52,634 nucleotides of DNA from a virus, in IMG/VR virus record IMGVR_UViG_3300029487_000014. One strand, given 5' to 3'. Of this stretch, positions 1,912-47,533 are shown one piece after another. Below the pieces are notes generated by a model. It did not search any database and was not told the origin of the DNA. It saw only the letters and a program-made list of their open reading frames with translations. The first letter of the stretch is position 1, and the number at the start of each line of letters is the position of its first letter. Both the position numbers and the translations under genes were made by a program.

Positions 1912-2239
1912 GACTATTAGCTATAAATCCGTTTGCCACTCTCATTTCATCCATAAACATAACAGAATTGTAATGCTTAGGAAATTCTTTTATCACCTTA
2001 AAGCTTGCTGTTTTATCTTTCACAAAGCTATTATCGCCTACAGGCTCTACATACCCAAGTTTTACAAACTTATAAAGATATGCAGTTTCTGAGTTTCTAC
2101 CTGGTTCTTTACCAAGCAGAATTTCTTTTGAACTTACTACTTTGCCAACATTATCGTTAACAAATTTTACCATTTCCGGAAATACCGGAGCTTGTTTTCC
2201 ATTACGTCCCATATTACATAAATTTTTTATATTTGTCAA
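1892..2239 (-). CDS. Hypothetical protein
   Basis: 115-aa ORF inside the packed replication operon. Confidence 0.55.
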   Translation of the reverse strand: MTNIKNLCNMGRNGKQAPVFPEMVKFVNDNVGKVVSSKEILLGKEPGRNSETAYLYKFVKLGYVEPVGDNSFVKDKTASFKVIKEFPKHYNSVMFMDEMRVANGFIANSHARKVY

Positions 2240-3653
2240 TTTTTGCTTTTATGCTATCCATTAAGGCATTTTGCTTTTTATCTTTTGCTTTAAGTGCTCT
2301 GATTACATCTTCATCGTGAGTGCCTTGCAATATCAAATGATTTATAACAACATGATTTTGCTGTCCTTGTCGATATAATCGAGCATTAAACTGCTGATAT
2401 AATTCAAGACTCCATGTTTGCCCAAACCAAACTATTATACTGCCTCCTGCTTGAAGATTAAGCCCATGGCCTGCTGATGCTGGATGCGCTAACATAACTT
2501 GTATTTTACCAGCATTCCAGTCTTCAATATCTTTATTGTTTTTAAGCTCTCTTGGCTTATATTTTTTAAGATATTCCACGATTCTATCCCTATCGAATTG
2601 ATAGGTCCATGCTACAAGCACAGATTGGCCATTTGCATCTTCAATTATCTCCTTAAGAGCTTCAAGCTTAATATCATGAATTGGAAACACACTTCTTTCT
2701 TCATCATATATAGCTCCATTAGCAAATTGAAGTAATTTATTTGAAAGGGCAGCGGCATTGACTACGTTTACTTCCACAGGCTTTTCAACAAATACTGAAT
2801 TACCATTTTCGTCTTCTTGCTCAATCGTTTCAGTAGCACTTATTAAGTCAAGCACTTTATTCTTTTCAAAGTCATCATATTGCTTCTTTAGAGCTTCAGG
2901 CATTCTAAGCTTTATATAGTTATCTGTCCTAAACGGCATTTCAAGATAATCATCGGCTTTCATGCTTATGCAAATATCCTCTATTTTCTTATGTATTAGA
3001 TATTCTGAGTCACTCATCAAATCGTATGAATATACGACATGACCATTCGTTTGACCTGGCCGAAAATACCTTTCTCTATATCTGGATATTGTCTTTTCAA
3101 GGCGCTCGCCTCTATCCATAAGATATATTTGAGGCCACAAATCAATAAGTCCATTTGGAGCGGGTGTACCAGTTAGTCCTACTAACCTTTTAAGATAAGG
3201 TCTTGCGCCGCGTAATGCCTTAAAACGCTCTGATTTATAAGACTTAAAACTGCTAAGCTCATCAACTACTACCATATCAAAAGGTAATTTGCCTCCGCCA
3301 TATAAAGCACAAAGCCATGCGACATTATCTCTTGATATGATATAAATATCAGCTTTTGTTTCCATAACAGCTGCTATTCGCTGTTTAGCAGTACCTATAA
3401 TCTTAGAAAAGCGCAAATGCTTTAAGTGGTCCCATTTCTCTGCTTCTTCTTGCCAAACTGACTCAGCTACTCGCTTTGGTGCTATGACTAACACTGAGTT
3501 AATCTCAAGATAGTCAAACATCAAATAGTTTACAGCTGTCAGTGTTGATACTGTCTTACCCAATCCCATATCAAGAAATACTCCACAAAATGGGTGAGTA
3601 ATTATATGCTCAACACAAGCCAATTGGTATTTATGTAAATCTGTTTCTTTCAT
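2214..3653 (-). CDS. SNF2/DEAD-like family helicase
   Basis: Motif I LDMGLGKT, motif II VVVDELSSFK, motif III LTGTPAPN, motif VI RLYRQGQQ. Confidence 0.85.
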   Translation of the reverse strand: MKETDLHKYQLACVEHIITHPFCGVFLDMGLGKTVSTLTAVNYLMFDYLEINSVLVIAPKRVAESVWQEEAEKWDHLKHLRFSKIIGTAKQRIAAVMETKADIYIISRDNVAWLCALYGGGKLPFDMVVVDELSSFKSYKSERFKALRGARPYLKRLVGLTGTPAPNGLIDLWPQIYLMDRGERLEKTISRYRERYFRPGQTNGHVVYSYDLMSDSEYLIHKKIEDICISMKADDYLEMPFRTDNYIKLRMPEALKKQYDDFEKNKVLDLISATETIEQEDENGNSVFVEKPVEVNVVNAAALSNKLLQFANGAIYDEERSVFPIHDIKLEALKEIIEDANGQSVLVAWTYQFDRDRIVEYLKKYKPRELKNNKDIEDWNAGKIQVMLAHPASAGHGLNLQAGGSIIVWFGQTWSLELYQQFNARLYRQGQQNHVVINHLILQGTHDEDVIRALKAKDKKQNALMDSIKAKIDKYKKFM

Positions 3654-4218: not shown

Positions 4219-4403
4219 AACCTGGCCATATAAATGTTATACTCACACTTATCCAAATTAAATTCCAGTTTGTCAACACAAAACTTTTGGCCATTGTATA
4301 TAACAATCGTTTTGACAGACGGAATATGTTCTATGTTTCTTGTTACAAGAAGCACAGAATTACGGTAATTTCCGTATTGCGTTTTATAAAAATTTGCTAT
4401 CAT
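4215..4403 (-). CDS. Hypothetical protein
   Basis: 62-aa ORF with start and stop overlaps to its neighbours. Confidence 0.5.
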   Translation of the reverse strand: MIANFYKTQYGNYRNSVLLVTRNIEHIPSVKTIVIYNGQKFCVDKLEFNLDKCEYNIYMARL

Positions 4404-6817
4404 AATAAGCTATCTTTACGTTTATAGTATTTCTGTTTACCATATAAAGGAAAGTTCTTAGTGGATGCTATAGCTTCCCATTCAGGCAATGACCTAAGAA
4501 TTTCATTAACCTCCCTGGTATTATATCTTGACATTTCTGTCTTATCTTTGCCGAGGCACTCACACCATACTTCAGCAATGCAGACAAAGTCTTTTTGTAC
4601 TGTACCGTTTTTAGACAATGGGTCTTCAAGCCAACGTCTTCTGTCGTACAGGTCCATTTTATCCCAATCATCTGGAAATTTAGTATTAAGATATTCTTCA
4701 ATAATACCTTTTCGCTCATCTGCTTCTGAGTGTTTATGCTGCTCAATCTTAGCAATTATATCTTCATCACCAACGAGGTATAAAGGCTCTTTTGCTAAAT
4801 ATAACTGATATGCTTCAGCCCATATTTGATTTACTTCATCTTGTGTAAGGTCATCATTTACAGACTTTGTAGCATATTCTGGCCTTACGTCTATAGGCAT
4901 AAATCGTCTATTTCCTGTTGGGTCACGTAAGAAATCTTTGTTATTAGTAGTACCAAAAAATACACACTGCCTTTTATATGTTTCTACTGTTCTACCATAC
5001 GCTGGCCTGAACATATCTTCTCTTTTTGATATGTAGTGCTTGATTGACTCTACTTCTGCTTTCTTAAGGCCTGAAAGCTCTGCCATTTCAATCAGCCACG
5101 CCCCTTGTATCTGCTCAAATGACTCCTTGCCCTGCACAGTCGTGAATGTATCTGAGAACCATTCCATGCCGAGCTTTTTAACGAAAGTACTTTTATATGT
5201 TCCTTGTTCTCCGACAAGTATAAGCGCTGTGTCGAACTTAATACCTGGCTCGAATACCCTCGCAACAGCCGCCACCAACGTCTTCCTAATGGTGGCTCTA
5301 GTATAAGCGTTATCTTCTGCTCCAAAATAATCAATCAATAATGTATTAACTCTCGGTATGCCATCCCACTTTTGAGCGCATATATACTCTCTTATCGGAT
5401 GGAACTTTTTCTTTTCAAATTCAAGCGCAAGCGCGTCGTCCACTTTTTGACTTGACACAATGCCGTAAACACACTCAATGTAATTACGAACACCAGAATA
5501 GTCAACATCACGAAGAGGCTCCACAGTATCGACTTTACGCCATGGTAACGAACGTGTAACATATCTTTTATTATCAAAAATGTTTAGCTTAAATACATCT
5601 TTTAAGAATTGGTCATGCTGAATTATTATATTCAAGTTATTGGCAGAATTATCATATTCGCCTTTTGTATTAGCGTCAAGCTCTTCTGTCCATGAAGTAT
5701 CATATTTTTCAGGAACTTCTGCTTTTGCTTCTTCTGCAAACTCGAATTTAGCTTCAGCAAACTTTTCTTCAGCAATATGCTTTTTTGTTGTAGAGTCCTT
5801 AGAGGCAAATTCTTCCATTGCCTTAAAGCTCTTTTTATCTTTGTCTTCTTTTTCTTTGCCTGTATCTAAATGGCCAAATTTATGTATGCGAACTAAGTCA
5901 AATGCATTACATAGTCTACCTCCAGCAGGGTCTGTTCCATGATGAGAATATGCAAATTTATCATCATAGACTATTAAGCCCGCAGCTGTAGAGCCATTTA
6001 TATATGTATATCGTCCTTCTCCAGCTGGTGTATATACATCTGAAAGAAAAGTCTCAATAGCTTCTTGTATAGTATAAGTACGGCAGAAAACACCAATTAT
6101 GCCTTTTTTATCTTCTGGGTCCTCTTGCTTTTTGATAGCTTGCATTATTACATCTGTGCTATCTGTAGCAGTTGGCCATTCACTCGTATCATGCCAATCA
6201 TTATATAGCCCAAGAATATAATCGGCTTCAAGGAAAGGTCCGTCTTGAAATTCAAAGTAGTACTCCATATCTGATGATACAGACGGCCAGAACATAAGTC
6301 TATTTACATCAAAAGTTGACTGGTCAAACAAATCAATGTTTAGGTCTCCAGCGACTTTTCGAGCAATAGCTTGATATTCTTCTTGCGATACTTCTCTATC
6401 AAGTGGAATTATCAATCTGTGTCGTGGCTTTTCAGGGCATGACTTATGGGTTGAATGAATAGCCGCAGCACAATCAAATAGCATTGTAAAGTCCCACCAA
6501 AAGTTCTCATGAGAAAAGTCAATATCCAATGTAATTAACTGGCGGTAAAGTACATTTGTTTTATCACGCCTACCATTTGTAAGAAATCCGCCTACAAATC
6601 CGCCTACATCTTTTATCTTACTTTGCTCTTCTTTTGTGGCACTTATAAACCGCTTATATGTTTCAGCGGTTACTACAGGAGTAGCTAGCTTTTGAACTAA
6701 ATTGCTCCAAGTAGTTTTGGTATTTTTCCATACTTTACTTGAAACATTTAGTCCAACTGCTATGCTCAAATTTTCATCATATTTCAATTTATCTACTTGC
6801 ATAATATGCGTAAACAA
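4400..6817 (-). CDS. Primase-polymerase (AEP-like N-terminus) fused to a VirE/D5-like P-loop helicase
   Basis: LITLDIDF (DxD) and AAIHSTHKS (sxH) lie in the N-terminal half. Walker A VGEQGTYKST and ELSGLKK lie in the C-terminal half. 805 aa. Confidence 0.8.
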   Translation of the reverse strand: MFTHIMQVDKLKYDENLSIAVGLNVSSKVWKNTKTTWSNLVQKLATPVVTAETYKRFISATKEEQSKIKDVGGFVGGFLTNGRRDKTNVLYRQLITLDIDFSHENFWWDFTMLFDCAAAIHSTHKSCPEKPRHRLIIPLDREVSQEEYQAIARKVAGDLNIDLFDQSTFDVNRLMFWPSVSSDMEYYFEFQDGPFLEADYILGLYNDWHDTSEWPTATDSTDVIMQAIKKQEDPEDKKGIIGVFCRTYTIQEAIETFLSDVYTPAGEGRYTYINGSTAAGLIVYDDKFAYSHHGTDPAGGRLCNAFDLVRIHKFGHLDTGKEKEDKDKKSFKAMEEFASKDSTTKKHIAEEKFAEAKFEFAEEAKAEVPEKYDTSWTEELDANTKGEYDNSANNLNIIIQHDQFLKDVFKLNIFDNKRYVTRSLPWRKVDTVEPLRDVDYSGVRNYIECVYGIVSSQKVDDALALEFEKKKFHPIREYICAQKWDGIPRVNTLLIDYFGAEDNAYTRATIRKTLVAAVARVFEPGIKFDTALILVGEQGTYKSTFVKKLGMEWFSDTFTTVQGKESFEQIQGAWLIEMAELSGLKKAEVESIKHYISKREDMFRPAYGRTVETYKRQCVFFGTTNNKDFLRDPTGNRRFMPIDVRPEYATKSVNDDLTQDEVNQIWAEAYQLYLAKEPLYLVGDEDIIAKIEQHKHSEADERKGIIEEYLNTKFPDDWDKMDLYDRRRWLEDPLSKNGTVQKDFVCIAEVWCECLGKDKTEMSRYNTREVNEILRSLPEWEAIASTKNFPLYGKQKYYKRKDSLL

Positions 6818-6843: not shown

Positions 6844-8820
6844 TTAATCTTTTAAGTAGAATGGTGTTGTATATCCATCTGCTCTTAGTGGAAGGTCTGA
6901 TGCCCATTCAGGAGGAGTGCCCATAATGCTTGCCATTTCTTCATAATATGCTTGAGCATTCTCTTCTGGGACTTCGCACAAAACTTCATCATGTATATGG
7001 CACACAGGATGATAGTCATTAGCCTCAAGATTTAACATAGAATTGCCAAGTAAATCTCTTGAAATAGCTTGTACAATGTTCTCTGTTAATTTGCCTCCAT
7101 ACGTATCAATTTCGCCCCATTGCTTAGTTTCTTGCACAACTCCTTGGTAACATAATACTCGGGTTGGCATCGTAGAACGGCCTATTTTCTTATCTTTGAA
7201 TTTAGGCCCATAATAGAATAGCTTTCTGCCAGATGGCAATTGTATTGTCATAAACTCACCATTACAGTCGAAAATTATATTTCTACATGTGCATGATACT
7301 GGTCTTTGGTATCTGACAGCCTCTTTCGATGCTTCATCTATTTCTTTCCACATATCTACAATTGCAGGGTTTGCCGAGCGCCATTTACGCACCAGGCTCA
7401 TCATTTCAGTATCTGATAAGCCCATACGTTCACCACCCATTCGCTTAAGTGCTCCTAATGAGCCCTCATAACCGAGTGCAAGCTCTGAAATCTTTGATTT
7501 GTCGCGAAGTACTGAACCTTTTGTAATAGCAGATATTGGTACATTAAACATCTTTGCTCCTGTAGCTTCATAGATTTTACCGTCTCCGCGGAATACATCC
7601 ATTCGCCATTTTTCATTTGCAAGCCAAGATATAACACGCGCCTCAATAGCTGAGAAGTCTGCAACACTAAATACTTTACCAGGCGATGCTATAAGAGCTG
7701 TTCTTACTAACTGGGACAAAATATCTGCAACATCATCATACATCATCTCAACCGACTCCCAATCACGCGCTCTAATCATTTCACGTGGTACTTCTATATG
7801 TGATATATGATTTTTTGATAAGTTCTGCAATTGCAATAATCTACCTGCCCATCGTCCAGTTCTATTTGCACCATAGAATTGAAATGTACCACGGACTCTA
7901 TGGTCTTTCATGGCACAATTAAGCATAGCATAATACTTCTTAATAGACGTTTTTGAGAGCTTTTTGCGTATATTAAGCAACTCGATAACATCTGGATAAT
8001 CTGCAAACTCTTTCATTAAATCAGGCATTGTTTCCTTTGAAAGTGACATAACAACACATCCTGTTGTCTTTTCAATCCATTGCCTAATTTGAACAGGCGA
8101 GTTTGGATTTTCAAGCCCTGTTAGCTGTTGAGCATGTTGCGTTAAGATAGAAGTATATGTGTTATCTACTGCGATAGCAGACTCTGCTAATTCCATATCA
8201 ACCAAAATACCTCTATCGTTTATATTCTGGTCAAGCACATACATCTTGCGCTCAATATCAGGAATGATATATGCCTCTAATCTCTTAAATATCTCACGCT
8301 CTGCAAGTACGTCATACTTGTTATATTCCTTATACATTTCCCACTTTTCAGGAGCATGTTCAGGATAATTCCGAGTACGCATGCCATTAACTCGAGTTGC
8401 TTTGCATGGGCATGAGAAGTATTTAATAAGCGCTTTACCAGTATCTAGCTTTTTATCTGTAAGATTAAGAGCCTTTGATACTCCGTCCAAAGAAAGTGGT
8501 AAACCACAATACGCAGCTTTTACAGAGGTACAATACCACTGTTCTGCTGGAACATTATATCCTATACGCTTAAAGCTCAAGCGCTCAAATACTGCATTAT
8601 GTGCCACTTTTACACAATCCGGGTCAAGCAAAGCTTCTTCAAACTCTTCAGGCATTTCTTCACCTTGAGCCAAATCTACTATCTTTACCGGGCCATCATC
8701 TAAAGCATATCCTATTATAAGAATTTCAAAGTCTGGTGACTCAATATACTTATAAGCTCCAGACTCTTTAATATCTACAGATGAATATGTTTCAACGTCT
8801 ATAAAAAGATTTTTTGCCAT
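6844..8820 (-). CDS. Family A DNA polymerase with 3'-5' exonuclease domain
   Basis: Exo I FIDVETYS, Exo II VAHNAVFERLSF, Exo III YNKYDVLAERE. Pol motif A VADFSAIEARV, motif B KSKISELALGYEGS, motif C HIHDEV. Confidence 0.9.
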   Translation of the reverse strand: MAKNLFIDVETYSSVDIKESGAYKYIESPDFEILIIGYALDDGPVKIVDLAQGEEMPEEFEEALLDPDCVKVAHNAVFERLSFKRIGYNVPAEQWYCTSVKAAYCGLPLSLDGVSKALNLTDKKLDTGKALIKYFSCPCKATRVNGMRTRNYPEHAPEKWEMYKEYNKYDVLAEREIFKRLEAYIIPDIERKMYVLDQNINDRGILVDMELAESAIAVDNTYTSILTQHAQQLTGLENPNSPVQIRQWIEKTTGCVVMSLSKETMPDLMKEFADYPDVIELLNIRKKLSKTSIKKYYAMLNCAMKDHRVRGTFQFYGANRTGRWAGRLLQLQNLSKNHISHIEVPREMIRARDWESVEMMYDDVADILSQLVRTALIASPGKVFSVADFSAIEARVISWLANEKWRMDVFRGDGKIYEATGAKMFNVPISAITKGSVLRDKSKISELALGYEGSLGALKRMGGERMGLSDTEMMSLVRKWRSANPAIVDMWKEIDEASKEAVRYQRPVSCTCRNIIFDCNGEFMTIQLPSGRKLFYYGPKFKDKKIGRSTMPTRVLCYQGVVQETKQWGEIDTYGGKLTENIVQAISRDLLGNSMLNLEANDYHPVCHIHDEVLCEVPEENAQAYYEEMASIMGTPPEWASDLPLRADGYTTPFYLKD

Positions 8821-8849
8821 TATTTCTTTATTTGATATTATAGAATTGT

Positions 8850-8932
8850 GGAATAGGCAGGACTCGAACCTGCATCTTGCTCTCGTTGTTTTTAAGTGGT
8901 ACCACGCTGCTCTTCCATTAAGCTACTATCCC
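8850..8932 (-). tRNA. tRNA-like gene 1 (83 nt): canonical acceptor, D and T arms but no canonical anticodon arm
   Basis: RNA sense: GGGATAG TA GCTTAATGGAAGAGC A [34 nt] GCAGGTTCGAGTCCTGC CTATTCC. No 5-bp/7-nt/5-bp arm exists anywhere in the central 34 nt; every window was checked by hand. Confidence 0.6.
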
Positions 8933-8938
8933 AATAGG

Positions 8939-9021
8939 AGTATAGGCGGGACTCGAACCCACGTTTACTTGGTTTCCACAGACGGTTTCCGAAGTAAGTT
9001 TTACCATTAAACTACTATACT
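8939..9021 (-). tRNA. tRNA-like gene 2 (83 nt): canonical acceptor, D and T arms; the central stem TACTT/AAGTA closes a 21-nt loop that holds a GGAAACC direct repeat
   Basis: RNA sense: AGTATAG TA GTTTAATGGTAAAAC T TACTT CGGAAACCGTCTGTGGAAACC AAGTA AAC GTGGGTTCGAGTCCCGC CTATACT. It lies 6 nt from gene 1. Confidence 0.6.
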
Positions 9022-9040
9022 CATTGATGCAGAGAGGAAA

Positions 9041-9601
9041 TTACATCATATCGTCATCCTGAACAGCATTATCTCCACCGAAATCTTCTTCAGCGGTTGA
9101 GCCACCAGCCAACATCTCTCCATCTTCGAGCTTCTGGAGATTGTTCAATCCAGCAGCGATACCTTTGGATGAAACATTGAAAGCATAGAAGTTGATTGAA
9201 GCGCGACCATAACAGCCAGAATAGAACTCGTCTCTACTCATGATTGGATTAAGTGAGCGGTCCACAATGCTCGGCTGACGCATCGAGTTTGCATTGATGA
9301 AATAGTGGTCCTCAAATACTGGGTCATCCGGACGTTCTTCATCGCCATCGCGTAGAGGCAATTTGAGGTTTGCTGGGATACGGCCATTCTTATCTGCGAG
9401 TTTTGCCTTACCTGCTTCCTTTGCAGCTTCTATGGCTTTCTTGATTTTGTCAATAGTAGCCGTATCGCTCTTAGGAATAAGAACGCAGATATTATACTTA
9501 GGAGTATCGCCCTCATTCATAGCTGTGGGCTCGAACACGTTTACATAGCAAAATCTTACTTTGCCAGTTACAACCTTGGTTGAATTTACTTGATTACTCA
9601 T
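9041..9601 (-). CDS. Phage ssDNA-binding protein (DUF2815 family)
   Basis: VTGKVRFCYVNVFEP...KYNICVLIPKSD plus an acidic C-terminal tail (DFGGDNAVQDDDMM). Sits in the usual position next to the DUF2800 gene. Confidence 0.75.
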   Translation of the reverse strand: MSNQVNSTKVVTGKVRFCYVNVFEPTAMNEGDTPKYNICVLIPKSDTATIDKIKKAIEAAKEAGKAKLADKNGRIPANLKLPLRDGDEERPDDPVFEDHYFINANSMRQPSIVDRSLNPIMSRDEFYSGCYGRASINFYAFNVSSKGIAAGLNNLQKLEDGEMLAGGSTAEEDFGGDNAVQDDDMM

Positions 9602-9793: not shown

Positions 9794-11008
9794 TTATTCG
9801 TCTTTGAAATCTAATTGTGCTTGAGCATATCCCATTGCTGGTCTCTTGTCTTCAAGCGGTACAAGAGTAGGTTTGCCTTGTGGCTTGATAACCACATCTG
9901 AGAGTATTTCCTCAAAACGCTTTTTGCCTACTAACTTCTCAATAGAAGTAATTGGCTTAAGTTTCATATTGAAAATCTCATCTTCTGAAAGTTCAGGGCA
10001 ACGTGCAAAAATTGCATTAGAAGCTTGGTCTTCGTCAGCCCATTTGCGTCGACTAATTCCTTCAACTAATTTAAGCCCCGGCCATTGCTTATTCTCGTTA
10101 ATCGCTTTAGTTTGTGCATATTCTGTTATTGAATTAGCCCATTCTATAAGCTTAGGCACACGCTTAACTATATCAGCAATCTCATCATCGGTTAACAACT
10201 CTGGGTCTGCAAATTCATGTTGTGCAATTTCGAGTTGTTGCTCATAAAGCTTACGACATTGATTACGCACAGCACAAAATCTGCACCAATCTCCAGCATT
10301 AAGTTCTCCTTTACCTTCGAATGCAAGTTCAGCTCTTGGCCTAAGCTCCTCTTCTGCCCATTTACGGAGTTCTTCGACAGATATTTGCCAATTTGATATA
10401 TTGTTAATGCGAGGCTGTATAATAGTCAATCGCACTTCCGTTATATCATACATTGTATCATATTTCTGCAAAGCTCCAAGCCCATAAAGCATAAGTTGCT
10501 TATTCCATTCAGCATATACTGGAACACCTTTTCCATATTTTAAGTCAATAACTTCCATAAGGTTGTCATTGATAACAACACAGTCAGCTGTTCCAAAGCT
10601 TTCAGGCACATATTCTGTCAAATCGAGTTTCTGCTCAATTTCCATGACAGCTAACGGATTTTCAGTTTTTGCTTCAGCTAATTGTTCTGAGCAATAATCC
10701 GTATAGATAGGTACAACTTCAAGCATTTCCTCACTGAACAAGTCATTTGCCATTATCTCTTCGAGCCTTTGGTCAAAGTCTTGCTCACTAATGCTGTTAA
10801 GTGTATCTTTTCTCAGGTAAAGCTCTGAGAGCTCATGAGCTAATGTACCTTCTTCTGCATATACTGAAGACTTCTTTTCTCCGTATTCATCTTCAAGCTT
10901 AGCAGATGGAGTACAATTCAGCCATCTTCCTGCTCCAGAAGCCGAGAGGAGTGCATGACTTCTCTGGCTATGTTTCTGTGGTTTAGTACTACTTGTCGCT
11001 TGAACCAT
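9794..11008 (-). CDS. PD-(D/E)XK nuclease, DUF2800 / Cas4-like with a Cys cluster
   Basis: RWLNCTPS, GTLAHE, VIDLKYGKG, and the C-terminal cluster CRFCAVRNQC. Confidence 0.8.
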   Translation of the reverse strand: MVQATSSTKPQKHSQRSHALLSASGAGRWLNCTPSAKLEDEYGEKKSSVYAEEGTLAHELSELYLRKDTLNSISEQDFDQRLEEIMANDLFSEEMLEVVPIYTDYCSEQLAEAKTENPLAVMEIEQKLDLTEYVPESFGTADCVVINDNLMEVIDLKYGKGVPVYAEWNKQLMLYGLGALQKYDTMYDITEVRLTIIQPRINNISNWQISVEELRKWAEEELRPRAELAFEGKGELNAGDWCRFCAVRNQCRKLYEQQLEIAQHEFADPELLTDDEIADIVKRVPKLIEWANSITEYAQTKAINENKQWPGLKLVEGISRRKWADEDQASNAIFARCPELSEDEIFNMKLKPITSIEKLVGKKRFEEILSDVVIKPQGKPTLVPLEDKRPAMGYAQAQLDFKDE

Positions 11009-42530: not shown

Positions 42531-42887
42531 ATGAAAGTAAACAGAAATTACCGTTTCGTATTGACGAACATTCCAAACAGCATGTTGGAAACAGGAGAAG
42601 TAAGAATTGACAACGAGGAAGTAACCGGCGAGAGAATGTTTGCCAGTGAATGCCACTACTATGCCGAAAAAAATATCCTCGAGTGTATCAAGGACGCAGC
42701 AAAACGCGACGACTTGCGCGGCTACTACGAACACACTTACTGTATCTACAAAGAGGACAAACCGAAAAAGGAGACAGTAGAGCGTGAAGAGGACGGCAAG
42801 AAAATTACCGAGACAAGAGAAATACCTGGCAAGGCAATGCTGGTTGAGGTAATTACAGTAGACGAGAACGGCATAAACATTCGCTAA
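42531..42887 (+). CDS. Hypothetical early protein
   Basis: 118-aa ORF preceded by the conserved leader AAAAATTTACAGCA. Confidence 0.65.
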   Translation: MKVNRNYRFVLTNIPNSMLETGEVRIDNEEVTGERMFASECHYYAEKNILECIKDAAKRDDLRGYYEHTYCIYKEDKPKKETVEREEDGKKITETREIPGKAMLVEVITVDENGINIR

Positions 42888-42904
42888 ACGAATGGCCGTT
42901 CGCC

Positions 42905-42943
42905 CCCGGGTTGGACGTACAGGAGTTCGACTCTCCTGCCGGG
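42905..42943 (+). promoter_or_regulatory. Structured intergenic element B (base stem CCCGG/CCGGG; T-arm-like hairpin CAGGAG-TTCGACT-CTCCTG)
   Basis: Hand folding. The 7-nt loop TTCGACT matches the tRNA T-loop pattern. Ends 28 nt before the ATG at 42972. Confidence 0.6.
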
Positions 42944-42971
42944 CACTATAACAAATCTAAAAATTACAGTT

Positions 42972-43346
42972 ATGACAAAGAACTATTACAGGAGTGAGTA
43001 CTCTGACAAACAGTGGAAAGCCTTAATCGACAAGGCCACGGAACTGGGTTGCCAGATAACTTATAGCAAGTACGGCAACATAGTAACAATCGACAGCACA
43101 GACCGGAAGAGCTTAATAATAGCTCAAACCGGGAGAGGCGGACAGGACAGAGTCGTATTGGCCGAGAGAATACACGGCGTGATACAGGAGAGCACAGACC
43201 TCAGAACGTGGAAAGTGCAGCCCAAGAGATACCGCAAAGGCTATTGTCCGACTATTTGCAAGAGTCAGAAGTCGGCTGAGCATGAACAGGAGCGTCTCGA
43301 GAGAATGACAGGTTTTGAGTGGACAATAACAGTAATACCAGAATAA
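42972..43346 (+). CDS. Hypothetical early protein
   Basis: 124-aa ORF preceded by the leader CTAAAAATTACAGTT. Confidence 0.65.
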   Translation: MTKNYYRSEYSDKQWKALIDKATELGCQITYSKYGNIVTIDSTDRKSLIIAQTGRGGQDRVVLAERIHGVIQESTDLRTWKVQPKRYRKGYCPTICKSQKSAEHEQERLERMTGFEWTITVIPE

Positions 43347-43347
43347 T

Positions 43348-43578
43348 ATGAAGAAGACAGTTTATTTGTACGTTGAAAGAGACGACAGCGAATACGACTA
43401 TAAAGCCGGATTTGCAAGCTACACTGAGGCAAATGACTATCGGCAAGAACGCCAACGCGGTTGGATGGGTCACTGTGACTATGTGTATCTTTGGACCGGC
43501 TCCGAGAGAATTAACCTCACAAGAATGCCGAAAGACGAGAGAAACAAATTGCTGAAACAGTTTAATATACCGGAATAA
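43348..43578 (+). CDS. Hypothetical early protein
   Basis: 76-aa ORF, 1 nt after the previous stop. Confidence 0.6.
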   Translation: MKKTVYLYVERDDSEYDYKAGFASYTEANDYRQERQRGWMGHCDYVYLWTGSERINLTRMPKDERNKLLKQFNIPE

Positions 43579-43579
43579 T

Positions 43580-43786
43580 ATGAGCAGCAAGAGAACTTAT
43601 ATCGCTACATTCTGGCGTAGCAATCCGCAATTGAAGAATGGCGGTTACTTCACTACAAAGGAATTTCAATCTGTGTCGCTCCAAGGAGCAACAAAACAGG
43701 CTGAGAGATATGCAGCTAGTAATATGTATGGAGGCATGGCAGTAAAAAGTGTTGAACTAAAACAAGAGAACAGCAATGGAAAATAA
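43580..43786 (+). CDS. Hypothetical early protein
   Basis: 68-aa ORF, 1 nt after the previous stop. Confidence 0.6.
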   Translation: MSSKRTYIATFWRSNPQLKNGGYFTTKEFQSVSLQGATKQAERYAASNMYGGMAVKSVELKQENSNGK

Positions 43787-43883
43787 CAAATCGCAGTTCA
43801 AGAGAACAGGAGTTTTGCACAACGGAGCCGAGTGCATTGAGATACAAATTGATGAATATGCAGCAAGAATGAACGTAAAATAA
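43776..43883 (+). CDS. Possible 35-aa protein
   Basis: Manual translation MENNKSQFKRTGVLHNGAECIEIQIDEYAARMNVK. Its start overlaps the previous gene's stop. Confidence 0.35.
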   Translation: MENNKSQFKRTGVLHNGAECIEIQIDEYAARMNVK

Positions 43884-43899
43884 CCAACATTATTTAACG

Positions 43900-43955
43900 A
43901 AAAAAGTTCTTAAAGCAGTAACCAGATTAAAATAAAAGTAGTATATTTGCATATA
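43900..43955 (+). promoter_or_regulatory. Rightward promoter P3 (TATATTTG at 43942-43949; conserved upstream block AAAAAAGTTCTTAAAGCAG at 43900-43918)
   Basis: Exact TAnnTTTG match. The whole module is duplicated as P4. Confidence 0.65.
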
Positions 43956-44002
43956 CTTAAAAAGATATGGCGATAGCCAAAACAACTAAAATTTACAGCA
44001 AT

Positions 44003-44194
44003 ATGGAAACAACAGTTTTTTATGTAGCAGTTGCCTATAACGGCGGTATTTTCAATCCCACAGTTGTGGAGAAGTTTGATAACAAAACAGATGCAGACAG
44101 CTATGCGGCCCTTATGTGTCGCTCAAAGCAACGCCGGTACATTGTACTCGAGCAAGTAACAGAATGGGACGGCACTCCTCAAGAGAATGCATGA
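44003..44194 (+). CDS. Hypothetical early protein (start placed at METTVFYV)
   Basis: The conserved leader CTAAAATTTACAGCAAT abuts the ATG at 44003. The upstream ATG at 43967 would translate through that leader. Confidence 0.6.
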   Translation: METTVFYVAVAYNGGIFNPTVVEKFDNKTDADSYAALMCRSKQRRYIVLEQVTEWDGTPQENA

Positions 44195-44199
44195 CCTTA

Positions 44200-44274
44200 G
44201 CCGCTGCGGAGAGAAACGATATTCGTGGAACAGTATCAAGCGAAGCGGATTTTAGGAGCGACACCTACAGCGGC
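44200..44274 (+). promoter_or_regulatory. Structured intergenic element C (base stem GCCGCTG/CAGCGGC; 3'-adjacent hairpin TAGG-AGCGACA-CCTA)
   Basis: Hand folding. Same layout as A and B. A second hairpin (TTGCT..CGCAA..TTGCG..AGCAA) follows at 44289-44316. Confidence 0.5.
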
Positions 44275-44337
44275 ACTAAGTTTAACCCTTGCTTTCGCAA
44301 TATTGTTGCGGAGCAACTAATAAAAATTTACAGTAAT

Positions 44338-44502
44338 ATGGTAACAATGAAATTTTCAGCAACCAAGTCAGAAACATTGTTTTTGACACCGACAATTGCA
44401 GTTGAACAAGACAACTCAGAAACAGCAATCCGATTTGCTCTTTGGCACGGCGTGTTCAGTGTAGAGGTAAGTAAGAGCTACAAAACCGTAAAAGCTAAAT
44501 AA
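44338..44502 (+). CDS. Hypothetical early protein (54 aa; start at MVTMKF)
   Basis: The leader TAAAAATTTACAGTAAT abuts the ATG at 44338. The longer track ORF from 44116 reads through element C. Confidence 0.55.
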   Translation: MVTMKFSATKSETLFLTPTIAVEQDNSETAIRFALWHGVFSVEVSKSYKTVKAK

Positions 44503-44503
44503 C

Positions 44504-44770
44504 ATGGCAAGAAATGAAATGTTTGTAACGGTTTATAGGCTTGAAGTTGAAGCCACTCGAGAGAATTTGGACAGTATGGAGAACTTTATAAAAGCTATTT
44601 CGGATAACGCTATCGTGTCCAACGATGAGGGCCATGTAGCTATCATAGTAGTGTCTTCGGATGCCTTAGGGACAACGAAATTGGCTAATATGGCACTCAA
44701 ATTCTTTGGCAAGGAGGGATATAATATAAGTACTCTCGGACTCTTAGGGCCGTTTAAGAAACTCAATTGA
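44504..44770 (+). CDS. Hypothetical early protein
   Basis: 88-aa ORF, 1 nt after the previous stop. Confidence 0.6.
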   Translation: MARNEMFVTVYRLEVEATRENLDSMENFIKAISDNAIVSNDEGHVAIIVVSSDALGTTKLANMALKFFGKEGYNISTLGLLGPFKKLN

Positions 44771-44792
44771 TATTTTTTAACATAAAACTTGG

Positions 44793-44848
44793 AAAAAAGT
44801 TCCCAAAGCAGCTCAATAATTCAAAAAAACATAGTATATTTGCAATAT
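44793..44848 (+). promoter_or_regulatory. Rightward promoter P4 (TATATTTG at 44835-44842; upstream block AAAAAAGTTCCCAAAGCAG at 44793-44811)
   Basis: Paralogue of P3. Confidence 0.65.
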
Positions 44849-44896
44849 CAAAATTAAACAATAACATTTTAATAACAATTCAAAATTTACAGCATT

Positions 44897-46024
44897 ATGG
44901 CAACAAAGAAATTTTTGCAGATGACAACGAAGAAGCTGAACGCTCTTTTGGCAACAGCAAGTGACGAAGACAAAAAGGCTATCGAGGCCGTACTCGCAGC
45001 TCGTGAACAGGCTCAGGCCCCCGCTGCTCCTGCAGCTCCTGAGGCAACCGCAGAAGAGACTCCTGCAAGTGAAGAAGAAACTCAGCTCAGCCCTGAGGAA
45101 GAAGCAGCTATTAAGGCAGCTGAAGAGAATGGCGGGCTCAACCCGCTTTACAATGGCAGCAAGGCAACTCAGGAGAAAAAGCCAAAGATGACCGACGAGG
45201 AGCGTCACGCATTGGCCGAAGAGCTGAAGAAGAACGTTAACCACCGTTGTCAGGCAGTTCCTTTCAACACTGCAGAATGGGTTGACGGCTATATCGCCGG
45301 AGTGATTGAAGAGAAGCGCAGCAATAAGGTGCTCTATGCAATCAAGACAGACGACGGACGCCGCATCGTTAAGGTACACGACAGCAATCTTGTTCGCATT
45401 CTGGATGAAGTCGTTGAGCCGGAGAAGAAAGCCCGCGCTCGCAAAGCAAAAGACCCGGCAGACAAAGTTGAATGGACACCGGAAGCAATTGCCGAAGAGG
45501 TTAACGAAGTTATCGGCAACGTGGGCAAAACGGTAGAATTTGAGAAATACCGCACTACAGACGAAAACGGCGAAGAGCACATTGAAATGGTAGTTGGCCG
45601 TATTGTGGCAATCGTGCCTGACAAACGAGCTCAGCGTTTGCTCTACCGCATTTCAGTTCCGGCTCCTATCGAAGGCAATCCGCTTGCAACGAAGACTATG
45701 CACAAGGTTGTAAAAGCCGAGGGCATTAAGATTACCGAAGAGTTCGATGAAGAAGGTGCACAGCTCAATGCCAAGTATCTTGAACGCCGTGAGGCAGCAG
45801 CAACCCGTACTCCACTTACTCCTCAGGACCGCGTAATTCGCTGCGAGGAGAATGTGAAGAAGGCGGAGGAGAAGCTGCAGAAAGCTCAGGAAGAGCTGGA
45901 AGCTAAAAAGAAGCAGCTTGAGGATGCAAAGAAGGAGCTGGATGAATATCTTGCCGGTCAGGTAAATGGAGAAACTGCCGAAGCTCCTGCTGAAACTACA
46001 GCCGAAGAGGAGTCACTTGCATAA
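44897..46024 (+). CDS. Hypothetical acidic protein with a PAAP linker, two repeated small domains and a C-terminal coiled coil
   Basis: 375 aa. It has its own promoter (P4), the conserved leader and tandem terminators. GC content looks higher than in the neighbouring genes. Confidence 0.8.
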   Translation: MATKKFLQMTTKKLNALLATASDEDKKAIEAVLAAREQAQAPAAPAAPEATAEETPASEEETQLSPEEEAAIKAAEENGGLNPLYNGSKATQEKKPKMTDEERHALAEELKKNVNHRCQAVPFNTAEWVDGYIAGVIEEKRSNKVLYAIKTDDGRRIVKVHDSNLVRILDEVVEPEKKARARKAKDPADKVEWTPEAIAEEVNEVIGNVGKTVEFEKYRTTDENGEEHIEMVVGRIVAIVPDKRAQRLLYRISVPAPIEGNPLATKTMHKVVKAEGIKITEEFDEEGAQLNAKYLERREAAATRTPLTPQDRVIRCEENVKKAEEKLQKAQEELEAKKKQLEDAKKELDEYLAGQVNGETAEAPAETTAEEESLA

Positions 46025-46053
46025 CACAGCCGCCTGACACCGTTTCTCCCATG

Positions 46054-46105
46054 GAGTCGCCTCTTTCGAGGCGGCTCTTTTTTGCTGCATATCTAAGTAT
46101 GCAGC
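46054..46105 (+). terminator. Tandem terminators: GAGTCGCCTC-TTTC-GAGGCGGCTC plus TTTTTT (46054-46083), then the GCTGCATA-TCTAAG-TATGCAGC hairpin (46084-46105)
   Basis: Hand folding. The first hairpin is followed by a T-run. Confidence 0.8.
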
Positions 46106-46169
46106 TATTTTTGTATTATTGTGATTTATGTTAAAATATGTAAACTCATAGAAACATGCTTCTTTCGCG

Positions 46170-46394
46170 TTCTAGGACACTTTTAGGCTTTGGGTGTACT
46201 ATAATATGGGTCAACTCAATTCGACGCAATAGAGGTCAAAAGAAGTGTATCTATCAATGTATTTTTATAAAGTCTATAATATGAATTGAGGTATGGACTT
46301 TCCTGAGCTTTAAGCCACTAAGCAGTTATATAAATAGCTGTTAAATTTATGGCTAAAAAGTTGACTCATTTTCGTGCATTCTAGGACACTTTTA
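46170..46394 (+). repeat. Direct repeat TTCTAGGACACTTTTA (46170-46185 and 46379-46394) with partly conserved upstream flanks (ACTCAT...TTTCG)
   Basis: Read directly in the 0.5-kb non-coding gap. Confidence 0.8.
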
Positions 46395-46619
46395 TTTGAG
46401 AATAATAGTAAACTAAATCTATAAAAAGAAATGAAGAGAGAATGAACGAGAATAATGAAATTTCATATATTTTCGAGGCGTTTAGAGCTCTATATTTTTA
46501 TATTAAAGCTGCAATAAACCAGTGAAAAATTTTTATGTTAAAGTCTGTAAAACAGTGATTTATATCAAGATTATTTTGTACTTTAACTTATAAAAGAATA
46601 AAAGTGAAACTGTTAAAAA

Positions 46620-46841
46620 ATGTTACACACTAGAACACATAAAAGCCGCATAGTCATTATGATTAAACAGCTTATGCCTGAGAGTACAAGCTGTGTAGCT
46701 CGTGTGCACAGTGGACTATGCAGCAATTGTCCACATTGGACCCTGAGTGTGGTACAGAAGTTAACAGAGGAAATGGCCGAGAGAATATCTGCCGCGATTG
46801 GACAGGAGAATATCACAAGGCCCCAACGAGAGAAATGTTGA
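46620..46841 (+). CDS. Hypothetical protein with a CxxxxxxxxCxxC motif (alternative start at 46659)
   Basis: 73-aa ORF containing STSCVARVHSGLCSNCPHW. Confidence 0.5.
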   Translation: MLHTRTHKSRIVIMIKQLMPESTSCVARVHSGLCSNCPHWTLSVVQKLTEEMAERISAAIGQENITRPQREKC

Positions 46842-46862
46842 ACAAAAATAAATAATTGCGAT

Positions 46863-47060
46863 ATGGAAATAAATGAACAAGAGAATACCCAAGAGGTACA
46901 GCAAGAAAATTTGCTTGATGGCTCTCAGTCAATTCAGGCAATGCAAGAAGGAAATGAACTGCCAGTAGCTGTTCAATTAGTTCAGCCTCAAGCTGCTTTA
47001 GATGAAATAGCAGAGCTTGAGAAGAAATATTGTGAAACTATAGAACGGGAGAATAAATGA
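46863..47060 (+). CDS. Hypothetical acidic protein
   Basis: 65-aa ORF, rich in Q and E. Confidence 0.55.
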   Translation: MEINEQENTQEVQQENLLDGSQSIQAMQEGNELPVAVQLVQPQAALDEIAELEKKYCETIERENK

Positions 47061-47533
47061 GCAATTTTGTTTTAGATTACAGCAAAAAGCAGACTTTGCA
47101 AATATCAAATGATGCTTTTTGCTTTTTGTATTATGGCGAAGAGCCATTAGATGAAGACAATTTGGAAGAAGCTAATGAGGTATCTGAAATGTTTTCCAAT
47201 AATTTTTATATAGAAGATAATTGGAAAGCAGTTGATGACTCAGACCTTATAGAATGTACTTTTGTTCCGTATGTTGAAGACCAAGCTGATTATGATGAAT
47301 ATGAGGACCTTACTAAATATATTCAGCAGCAAATAAAATGGCTTGATGCAAATCATATTAGAGTATGGTGGTTTAATAACCAAACTGGGACGAGAGAATT
47401 ACGTGGTGATTTTAAGGTTTATACCAATAAATATGGCCTTAAGTGTTTTCATACAGGCAATCAAGATGAGGATTTTGTAACAGGAAAAATGAGCCTGTAT
47501 TTTTTGAAGAATTTCAAGAAGCGCATAGCTTAA
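47057..47533 (+). CDS. Hypothetical protein with a strongly acidic N-terminal half
   Basis: 158 aa. Residues 1-87 hold about 27 Asp/Glu and about 4 Lys/Arg. ATGA overlap with the previous gene. Confidence 0.65.
   Translation: MSNFVLDYSKKQTLQISNDAFCFLYYGEEPLDEDNLEEANEVSEMFSNNFYIEDNWKAVDDSDLIECTFVPYVEDQADYDEYEDLTKYIQQQIKWLDANHIRVWWFNNQTGTRELRGDFKVYTNKYGLKCFHTGNQDEDFVTGKMSLYFLKNFKKRIA

Follow-up and report, generated by a model that had tools for sequence, protein, structure and literature searches.

The locus described here raises the question of why a gut Bacteroides-type phage would keep two genes that retain three arms of a tRNA (acceptor, D and T) and lack the arm that reads the codon. The genes lie in tandem on the minus strand of the IMG/VR virus record IMGVR_UViG_3300029487_000014; the whole stretch of DNA analysed, 52,634 nucleotides, is referred to as the window. 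Gene 2 follows the gene for a single-stranded DNA-binding protein (SSB), and gene 1 precedes the gene for a DNA polymerase. An earlier note, made from the letters of the window, had described tandem units of 83 nt separated by 6 nt, and this placement is reproduced: each gene measures 84 nt with its discriminator and 83 nt without, and the distance between the genes is 5 nt, or 6 nt if the discriminator is excluded. A spacing of 5 nt is typical of phage tRNA clusters, such as that of T4. The flanking genes named in the note are borne out by profile matches to phrog_112 (SSB) and phrog_17 (polymerase). The answer that the evidence modestly favors is that gene 1 and gene 2 are tRNA-derived, non-decoding RNAs that come from a T7-like replication operon, and the elements are best classed as a modular variant of tRNA-like processing elements and small RNAs. 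Beyond what the earlier note had described, the elements are members of a large, modular family that occupies a conserved tRNA slot, and their position points to a likely role in mRNA processing in cis.

The scaffold of both genes is that of a canonical tRNA. Each has a 7-bp acceptor stem with a discriminator, a D arm with G18G19 and a T loop of the form GTTCRANYC, and the T-arm motif GGTTCGAGTCC (GGTTCRANYCC type) is present in both. The Rfam tRNA model RF00005, which has a gathering score of 29, matches gene 1 with 47.7 bits (E 3.6e-07) and gene 2 with 44.0 bits (E 3.7e-06); both are aligned over model positions 1-71, with the anticodon arm bypassed as a local insertion of 25 nt in gene 1 and 30 nt in gene 2. 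The acceptor, D and T arms reported in the earlier note are thus confirmed by the model, and only its description of the T arms as perfect fails for gene 2, where GTGGG/CCCGC contains one U.G wobble. An exhaustive scan of all registers in the 35 nt that separate the D arm from the T arm detects no 5/5 stem with a 7-nt loop in either gene, in agreement with the earlier fold by hand, and yields only a few misplaced 4/5 stems, none of which has U33. ARAGORN makes no tRNA or tmRNA call in the entire 52.6-kb window. A permissive Rfam scan of the window (E up to 5) reveals no further tRNA-like element, no intron family and no family for either central segment.

The conservation of the arrangement was assessed in related loci, 80 of which were collected from IMG/VR with the SSB protein of the window and 22 more with a more distant SSB. 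More than 130 related phage loci mark the gap that follows the gp2.5-like SSB gene as a tRNA slot, and practically all of the 80 and the 22 harbor a tRNA or tRNA-like gene directly 3' of the SSB gene. The same elements recur in more than 100 independent viral and metagenome contigs; about 50 contigs carry the central type of gene 2 on an identical scaffold, and the gene 1 type recurs in IMG/VR and in 32 gut-metagenome contigs. The occurrence of the two genes is not a matter of chance. Canonical tRNAs also occupy the slot, namely tRNA-Met(CAU) in locus L121 and tRNA-Gln(UUG) in locus L122, and a canonical tRNA-Met in locus L335 shares the 5' scaffold of gene 1. The sole features present throughout the family are the acceptor stem, the T arm with its near-invariant GTTCGAnTC loop, the discriminator and the absence of an encoded CCA; variation in the T loop is confined to column 21 (C in at least 90%) and the N column.

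The centers carried by these scaffolds are modular. The scaffold lineage AGUAUAG...CUAUACU-C carries either center A, as in gene 2 of the window, or center B, whose 10-bp arm contains a bulged A and bears a conserved UUGRUU loop. The lineage GGGAUAG... carries either center D, as in gene 1, or center C, a 5-bp stem with a 9-nt loop of variable sequence. More distant phages have type E elements of 100-125 nt, in which a 6-bp stem at the anticodon position closes an insert of 45-57 nt, and minimal relatives of 62-71 nt consist of little beyond the acceptor/T minihelix. Among the 80 loci, type B occurs alone in 29, A together with D in 23, C alone in 17, A alone in three, E in three and D alone in one, and metagenome contigs further display B+D and hairpin+D arrangements. 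Types B and C accompany SSBs that are ∼80% to 99% identical to that of the window, and the types do not track SSB identity, which indicates that the cassettes move by recombination. The nearest cultured relatives, the Bacteroides fragilis phages BF486P2, BF503P1 and BF503P4 (∼74% identity in the flanks), have a terminator hairpin in the gap, followed by one degenerate, cloverleaf-like element of 67 nt that is silent in Rfam and ARAGORN and is unannotated.

The scaffold helices covary. Across 30 distinct acceptor/T scaffolds, 98% of the cells are paired, a figure that is partly built in since the harvest of scaffolds demanded pairing, and 10 of the 12 pairs are changed on both sides; moving the partner by 1-3 columns lowers pairing to 30-50%. 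The informative point of this comparison is the presence of many different helix sequences at one site. The helices also tolerate G.U pairs, which argues for an RNA of the gene strand rather than a DNA signal.

Whether such elements could decode is best judged across the family. On excised elements, ARAGORN is silent for types A, C, D and E and for the minimal forms, while near-identical variants of type B are called as Gln(UUG), a four-base 'ccat' and Asn(AUU); all of these calls break the D stem and lack U33. With introns allowed, excised family members receive the contradictory identities Phe, Phe, Ala, His, Tyr and Leu, none with U33. Orthologous copies therefore do not share an anticodon or isotype, as the isotype differs among near-identical variants. 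Gene 1 and gene 2 are not decoding tRNAs, because the isotype never changes between alleles of a decoding tRNA, nor is a whole anticodon arm swapped on an identical body. That they nevertheless decode, as true tRNAs whose anticodon arms are extreme or whose short introns are excised by some activity, is highly improbable. Such a reading can point to the excellent scaffold, to the canonical tRNAs in the same slot of relatives and to the intron mode of ARAGORN, which forces gene 2 into Phe-GAA with a 14-nt intron and gene 1 into Phe-AAA with a 6-nt intron, but the forced calls lack U33 and shift in isotype between near-identical variants, no register allows a 5/7/5 arm, unrelated centers sit on one scaffold, and neither an RNA ligase nor a splicing endonuclease is present among the 20 ORFs scanned, a subset of those in the window. 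In bacteria, tRNA introns belong to group I and span about 200 nt or more, far above the inserts of 6-21 nt considered here, and an intron-containing tRNA, of the bacterial group I or the archaeal bulge-helix-bulge kind, was rejected on this ground as well as on the missing U33, the inconsistent isotypes and the lack of an intron family in the Rfam scan. Among the checks proposed in the earlier note, ARAGORN with introns allowed and RF00005 returned no normal cloverleaf with a defined anticodon. Of the two options it had offered, the unusual decoding tRNA finds no support, and the tRNA-like small RNA agrees with the lack of a shared anticodon, the modular and constrained centers and the covarying scaffold.

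Two more specific identities were considered and rejected. A tmRNA is contradicted by the absence of any ARAGORN or Rfam tmRNA match in the window; gene 1 shares only the G3:U70/A73 acceptor with it, and 84 nt leave no room for a tag frame. A histidine identity for gene 2, based on G-1:C73 and a CUGUGGA loop motif, fails as position -1, a G in the window, is an A in other and indeed in many loci, and as type B replaces the center altogether.

The central segments themselves, each 35 nt long, differ in structure. In gene 2, a UACUU/AAGUA stem at the position of the anticodon stem closes a 21-nt insert, which includes the direct repeat GGAAACC at 8971-8977 and 8984-8990 and can form GG/CC, an AAA/AAA internal loop, CC/GG and a GUCUGU loop; folded alone, the center is a weak irregular hairpin (-6.7 kcal/mol, z -1.0). 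The center of gene 1 consists of a self-complementary 10-mer, GUGGUACCAC (8896-8905), followed by an A-rich unstructured stretch of ∼22 nt, CUUAAAAACAACGAGAGCAAGAU, and is essentially unstructured when folded alone (-1.6 kcal/mol, z +0.65). The stem, the loop with its double repeat, the palindrome GTGGTACCAC at 8896-8905 and the A-rich character of gene 1 had all been described in the earlier note and were found as described.

Both centers are conserved. Among 22 distinct loci with the A+D arrangement, only 2 of the 35 columns of the gene 2 center vary, and one variant, C to T, retains a G.U pair. In the same loci, nucleotide diversity (pi) is 0.018 in the gene 2 center and 0.007-0.014 in its scaffold, and 0.029 in the gene 1 center and 0.030-0.038 in its scaffold; third-codon sites reach 0.098 in the SSB gene and 0.054 in the polymerase gene. 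Both centers are thus 2-5 times less variable than third-codon sites, and by this measure they appear to be under constraint similar to that on the scaffolds. In a comparison of the centers with related loci for covariation, as the earlier note had suggested, the type-B arm is 94% paired, and three of its 10 pairs show compensatory changes on both sides; types A and D show too little variation for such a comparison.

The gene 2 center is absent from 185,579 species-representative bacterial genomes. GGAAACC and GTGGTACCAC were considered as dispersed protein-binding sites and rejected, neither being enriched in the phage genome. Pairing with the polymerase start region is matched by 33% of genome windows for gene 2 and by 99% for gene 1. 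In phage transcripts, the longest perfect antisense helix of 9-10 nt equals the shuffle expectation, and high RNAduplex scores for candidate targets proved to be loop-rich artefacts. The guide function raised in the earlier note therefore loses its basis as far as the phage's own transcripts are concerned, where pairing is no better than chance. The phage genome contains no primer-binding-site-like complement to the 3' end of either gene. An upstream open reading frame from an AUG inside gene 1 (AAGAUGCAGG) was discarded, as a variant allele has AUA. Most probably, the centers expose a site to which a host or phage partner binds.

A mechanism is proposed on the basis of the anatomy, the absent anticodon arm, the conserved slot, the covarying scaffold and the modular, constrained cassettes. 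RNase P, RNase Z and the CCA-adding enzyme can all act without an anticodon arm, and the acceptor/T minihelix is the least that they require of a substrate. Punctuation of phage transcripts by nucleases is familiar from the RNase III sites of T7, and organellar transcripts are punctuated by tRNAs and t-elements (PMC1920247). One replication-operon transcript would comprise, in order, exonuclease, gp2.5-like SSB, gene 2, gene 1, DNA polymerase and primase-helicase. The acceptor, D and T arms would form an L-shaped frame recognizable by host RNase P at the 5' end and RNase Z at the 3' end; such excision is proposed because the elements directly follow the SSB gene and, in several lineages, also stand right after a stable hairpin. 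Excision would cut the message for the abundant SSB off from the polymerase/primase message, and after the RNase Z cut the polymerase mRNA would begin with the 28-nt leader at 8821-8848. It would also free two nuclease-resistant RNAs of ∼84 nt, both probably finished by a CCA-adding enzyme. In place of the anticodon arm, these RNAs would present lineage-specific cassettes maintained by selection, an irregular extended hairpin in gene 2 and the 10-mer with its A-rich strand in gene 1. A second role, acting in trans, is argued for because the centers are constrained, the cassettes are discrete and exchangeable, two different elements can stand in tandem and a stand-alone relative exists.

Several points weigh against this proposal. 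Processing alone would need one element, and most relatives do have one. A terminator-like hairpin precedes the element in several relatives, and co-transcription with the SSB gene may therefore be partial. The low diversity of the centers could partly reflect recent recombinational spread rather than purifying selection alone; the type A and D centers are too uniform to be tested for covariation themselves and fold weakly or not at all, and no partner or target for the centers was found in phage transcripts, Rfam or bacterial genomes. The pairing built into the scaffold harvest belongs here as well. A purely cis-acting role is a minority possibility to be taken seriously, in which the elements are RNase P/Z cleavage signals or protectors of the 3' end of the SSB mRNA and the center is tolerated filler. 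The position after the SSB gene is fixed whatever the type of center, the 62-71-nt relatives retain just the acceptor/T minihelix, a plain hairpin takes the first slot in many loci, searches in the phage returned no target for the centers, and the t-elements of plant mitochondria provide a precedent (PMC1920247). Filler would not be expected, however, to be as conserved as the scaffold and 2-5 times less variable than third-codon sites, nor to show the compensatory changes and conserved UUGRUU loop of type B. Discrete cassette types persist instead of a continuum of decay, two different tandem elements would be redundant for mere cleavage, and the gene-1-like element of locus L323 is a stand-alone gene with its own terminator. 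A role at the level of DNA, as a replication origin, a recombination hot spot or an attP-like tRNA fragment, is very unlikely. The location inside replication genes, the palindrome and direct repeats, and the gap being a mosaic junction would suit it, but covarying, G.U-tolerant helices make sense only in RNA of one strand, the T loop GTTCGAnTC is nearly invariant, and the motifs are not above chance elsewhere in the genome. An attP-type fragment or a host origin was rejected specifically, as neither the 21-nt T-arm/acceptor 3' half of gene 1 nor the gene 2 center matches any of the 185,579 species genomes, and the 20 ORFs scanned include no integrase.

The most far-reaching reading is a natural tRNA-scaffold system of gut Bacteroides-type phages, in which a processing-competent frame carries exchangeable cassettes that recombine between phages like accessory anti-host genes. 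Gene 1 would be alanine-chargeable and self-pairing through a palindrome that compensatory change keeps intact, gene 2 would present a protein-binding hairpin, and both would act in trans on host factors, for example as decoys for defence nucleases that target tRNAs or as synthetase/EF-Tu sponges, beyond marking sites of cleavage; this full version is rather unlikely. One of its components is the acceptor of gene 1, GGGAUAG...CUAUUCC-A, in which G1:C72, G2:C71, G3.U70 and A73 make up the full acceptor identity set of alanyl-tRNA synthetase (AlaRS). AlaRS reads the G3:U70/G2:C71/A73 set without any anticodon (reviewed in PMC9976931). A narrower proposal is that gene 1 is an alanine-accepting tRNA mimic, predicted to be charged by host AlaRS, whose Ala-RNA would act off the ribosome through titration of AlaRS/EF-Tu, interference with tmRNA-SmpB or donation of alanine. 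In its favor, G3.U70 is retained in D-type copies while pair 5:68 covaries (U-A to C-G in locus L328), and it is also present in L323, in a separate context with another T stem and center. Against it, type C, the sister type with a shared GGGAUAG scaffold, and the D/C chimera L018 have G3-C70, which makes the wobble dispensable across the lineage; the D-type copies are close relatives and persistence may be simple inheritance, and ARAGORN detects no tmRNA features. The mimic is accordingly improbable, and the alanine identity of gene 1 is a lead only, which may reflect inheritance rather than selection.

A second lead concerns the 10-mer of gene 1. In IMG/VR, it occurs solely as GUGGUACCAC or GUGGCGCCAC, in 12 distinct contexts and with no non-palindromic allele; the central dinucleotide is only UA or CG, both of which are palindromic. 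Locus L323 carries GCGCGCGC at the same position, and two metagenome singletons change an outer position, one of them still allowing a G.U pair and the other leaving it unpaired. Pairing between two gene 1 molecules is predicted to be favorable and is a lead rather than a finding. The L323 element (IMGVR_UViG_3300012247_000016) lies at ∼5141-5220 of the reoriented locus, has the GGGAUAG/CUAUUCC-A acceptor and stands in an unrelated context with its own terminator 3' of the element, which suggests that the gene 1 scaffold can exist as an independent small-RNA gene.

Among the closest known systems are the t-elements of plant mitochondria; they contain the GGTTCRANYCC motif and direct the cleavage of mRNAs by RNase P and RNase Z (PMC1920247). 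Like the phage genes, t-elements are non-canonical cloverleafs with this T-arm motif (GGTTCGAGTCC in the phage) that adjoin protein genes in a polycistronic transcript (PMC1920247), and RNase P/Z cutting is proposed to define mRNA ends in both. The placement of the phage elements is of the t-element type, as motif-bearing non-canonical cloverleafs lie between coding regions with no promoter or terminator signal. Unlike t-elements, the phage elements belong to a bacteriophage rather than an organelle, occur as two different elements in tandem, have far better kept scaffolds with a complete D arm and RF00005 scores of 44-48 bits, and carry discrete, conserved, interchangeable cassettes. The engineered tRNA scaffold of Ponchon and Dardel likewise keeps the acceptor, T and D arms and replaces the anticodon stem-loop by an insert, and in Escherichia coli cellular factors recognize the chimeras, which are processed precisely and protected from nucleases (PMC3753655). 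That scaffold is man-made and has a hairpin at the insertion point, whereas the phage elements are natural and gene 1 has no closing stem.

Other tRNA-shaped RNAs are related by analogy. The likeness to T4 species 1 and 2 RNAs (rnaC and rnaD) drawn in the earlier note holds in part: rnaC is a stable phage RNA in which an acceptor-like stem and a canonical T arm, CCGGGTTCGAATCCCGG, enclose a non-tRNA middle, but it has no RF00005 match (17.5 bits on tRNA-Sec, E 0.7), and no tRNA-like feature was found in rnaD. In addition, rnaC has no sequence relationship to the phage genes, is 139 nt long with a long 5' extension and, like rnaD, sits in a tRNA cluster rather than between replication genes, so that the relation is one of analogy, not membership. 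To our knowledge, no function is established for rnaC. The mascRNA of MALAT1 and the tRNA-like RNAs of murine gammaherpesvirus 68 are released from a longer transcript by RNase P and RNase Z, receive CCA and take no part in translation; they too are tRNA-shaped without a meaningful anticodon, in eukaryotic hosts with other machinery and with no homology to the phage genes. YrlA (RF02553) is a non-coding RNA, found in some phages too, that mimics the elbow formed by the tRNA D and T arms (PMC4201824), but it is circularly permuted relative to a tRNA, has its ends within the long Ro60-binding stem and has a loop-closed acceptor-like stem. As a candidate family it was rejected, with 24 bits against a gathering score of 69 (E 0.86) and a match that straddles the junction of both genes; no Ro60 or RtcB context is seen around them.

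The elements constitute a conserved feature missed by standard annotation, given that ARAGORN is silent and the cultured relatives are unannotated in the gap, and they rank with the best conserved non-coding features in a phage group common in human-gut metagenomes. Literature searches returned no account of tRNA-like genes that lack an anticodon in phages of Bacteroides. If processed as proposed, they would represent organelle-style tRNA punctuation in a bacteriophage, uncoupling an abundant SSB from catalytic replication enzymes, and nature would have reached the tRNA scaffold that RNA engineers use to stabilize foreign RNAs. The exchangeable cassettes resemble an accessory, possibly host-interaction, RNA layer, which would widen the search space for counter-defence and regulatory RNAs. 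The cultured family members BF486P2, BF503P1 and BF503P4 make the processing model directly testable.

The surrounding minus-strand genes form a T7-style replication module (table). A scan of the gap between the SSB and polymerase genes detects no sigma-70-like promoter or intrinsic terminator above shuffle expectation, within a range that does not cover Bacteroidetes promoters, and co-transcription with the neighbors is the simplest assumption because no such signal is present. A CCA-adding enzyme is absent from the 20 ORFs scanned, as is an RNA ligase.

Features of the two tRNA-like genes and of the replication module in the window
Feature	Coordinates	Strand	Details
Exonuclease	9794-11008	-	
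SSB, gp2.5-like ssDNA-binding/annealing protein	9041-9601	-	186 aa; upstream of the tRNA-like genes; phrog_112, E 1.8e-68
Spacer, SSB stop codon to gene 2	9022-9040	-	19 nt; no promoter or terminator
Gene 2 (type A tRNA-like RNA)	8938-9021	-	84 nt; RF00005 match, arm skipped
Gene 2 acceptor, 5' strand	9015-9021	-	
Gene 2 D arm	8998-9012	-	
Gene 2 central cassette	8963-8997	-	35 nt
Gene 2 T arm	8946-8962	-	
Gene 2 acceptor, 3' strand	8939-8945	-	
Gene 2 discriminator	8938	-	C
Spacer, gene 2 to gene 1	8933-8937	-	CUAUU, 5 nt
Gene 1 (type D tRNA-like RNA)	8849-8932	-	84 nt; RF00005 match, arm skipped
Gene 1 acceptor, 5' strand	8926-8932	-	G1:C72, G2:C71, G3.U70
Gene 1 D arm	8909-8923	-	
Gene 1 central cassette	8874-8908	-	35 nt; no anticodon-type stem
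Gene 1 T arm	8857-8873	-	
Gene 1 acceptor, 3' strand	8850-8856	-	
Gene 1 discriminator	8849	-	A
Leader, gene 1 discriminator to polymerase start codon	8821-8848	-	28 nt; A/U-rich
Family-A DNA polymerase	6844-8820	-	658 aa; N-terminal 3'-5' exonuclease motif; downstream of the tRNA-like genes; phrog_17, E 4.7e-135
Primase-helicase	4400-6817	-	
Helicase	2214-3653	-	

Elsewhere in the window, a non-coding A/T-rich region of ∼600 bp at 46030-46620 follows a terminator at 46054-46085 and harbors two copies of TTCTAGGACACTTTTA (at about 46170 and 46379). The region lies inside a short plus-strand gene block at 42531-47533 and is a candidate regulatory or origin region. A weak Rfam match to CRISPR-DR53 at 46045-46081, considered as a solitary mimic of a CRISPR repeat, corresponds to the intrinsic terminator and was rejected.

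The SSB-downstream region of several relatives contains further elements. In the type E loci L108-L111, L113-L115, L117, L118 and L128, the conserved loop and 3' strand of the central hairpin (UUCCAUAAUGCUGCU) are complementary to the start of an ORF of ∼45 aa located 30-40 nt downstream (AGCAGAAUUAUGGAA), and the best match always covers the AUG. One apparent co-variation is present, in L117 and L118 (CCAUAAUACU vs AGUAUUAUGG). With a per-locus chance of 1-16% in loci that are related, this pairing is only suggestive, and it might be a relic of a CAU anticodon loop. A long hairpin lies between the SSB stop and the type E element (∼3048-3125 in L108; ∼3080-3160 in L115 and L128); its inner segment GAGAAAACAGGCUUAAAGUCCUAU is conserved though the hairpins otherwise differ, and is maybe a second structured RNA or a protein-binding site. 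In L122 and L124, a tRNA-like gene (ACCCAGA...UCUGGGU) at ∼+85 to +279 relative to the SSB stop has a D arm of class-II type and an insert of ∼190 nt; this interrupted gene may be a group I intron-containing tRNA, and a canonical tRNA-Gln comes after it. Locus L121 has three copies of AAAGCCTGTGAAGGTAAGTAG at ∼+60 to +290 after the SSB stop, before a short tRNA-like element and tRNA-Met(CAU), and the triplicate resembles a repeated promoter or processing motif. The 73-nt slot element of L126 (1854-1927) is called tRNA-Ser(ACU) by ARAGORN, with an odd anticodon and a class-I-sized body, which is probably a forced call.

Replacement of the anticodon arm may be more general among phages, as suggested by the sequences of unrelated viral tRNA-like genes. 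L304, L309, L316, L326 and L301 (11 contigs) have such genes with a normal 5' scaffold (GGATAGTAGCTTAATGG...) and centers of at least 55 nt; in one example, CGGAG...CUCCG closes about 30 nt. A different departure is displayed by a widespread phage tRNA-Ile(UAU) in unrelated IMG/VR contigs (L133, L136, L138, L140, L142-L144, L146, L149, L153, L156, L157, L160, L162, L164, L173, L176, L182, L183, L189, L193-L195, L197, L199, L202, L206 and L207). It has a class-II-like long variable arm with a conserved CAGAUAAU or CCAGAUUAG, and a long variable arm is unusual for tRNA-Ile.

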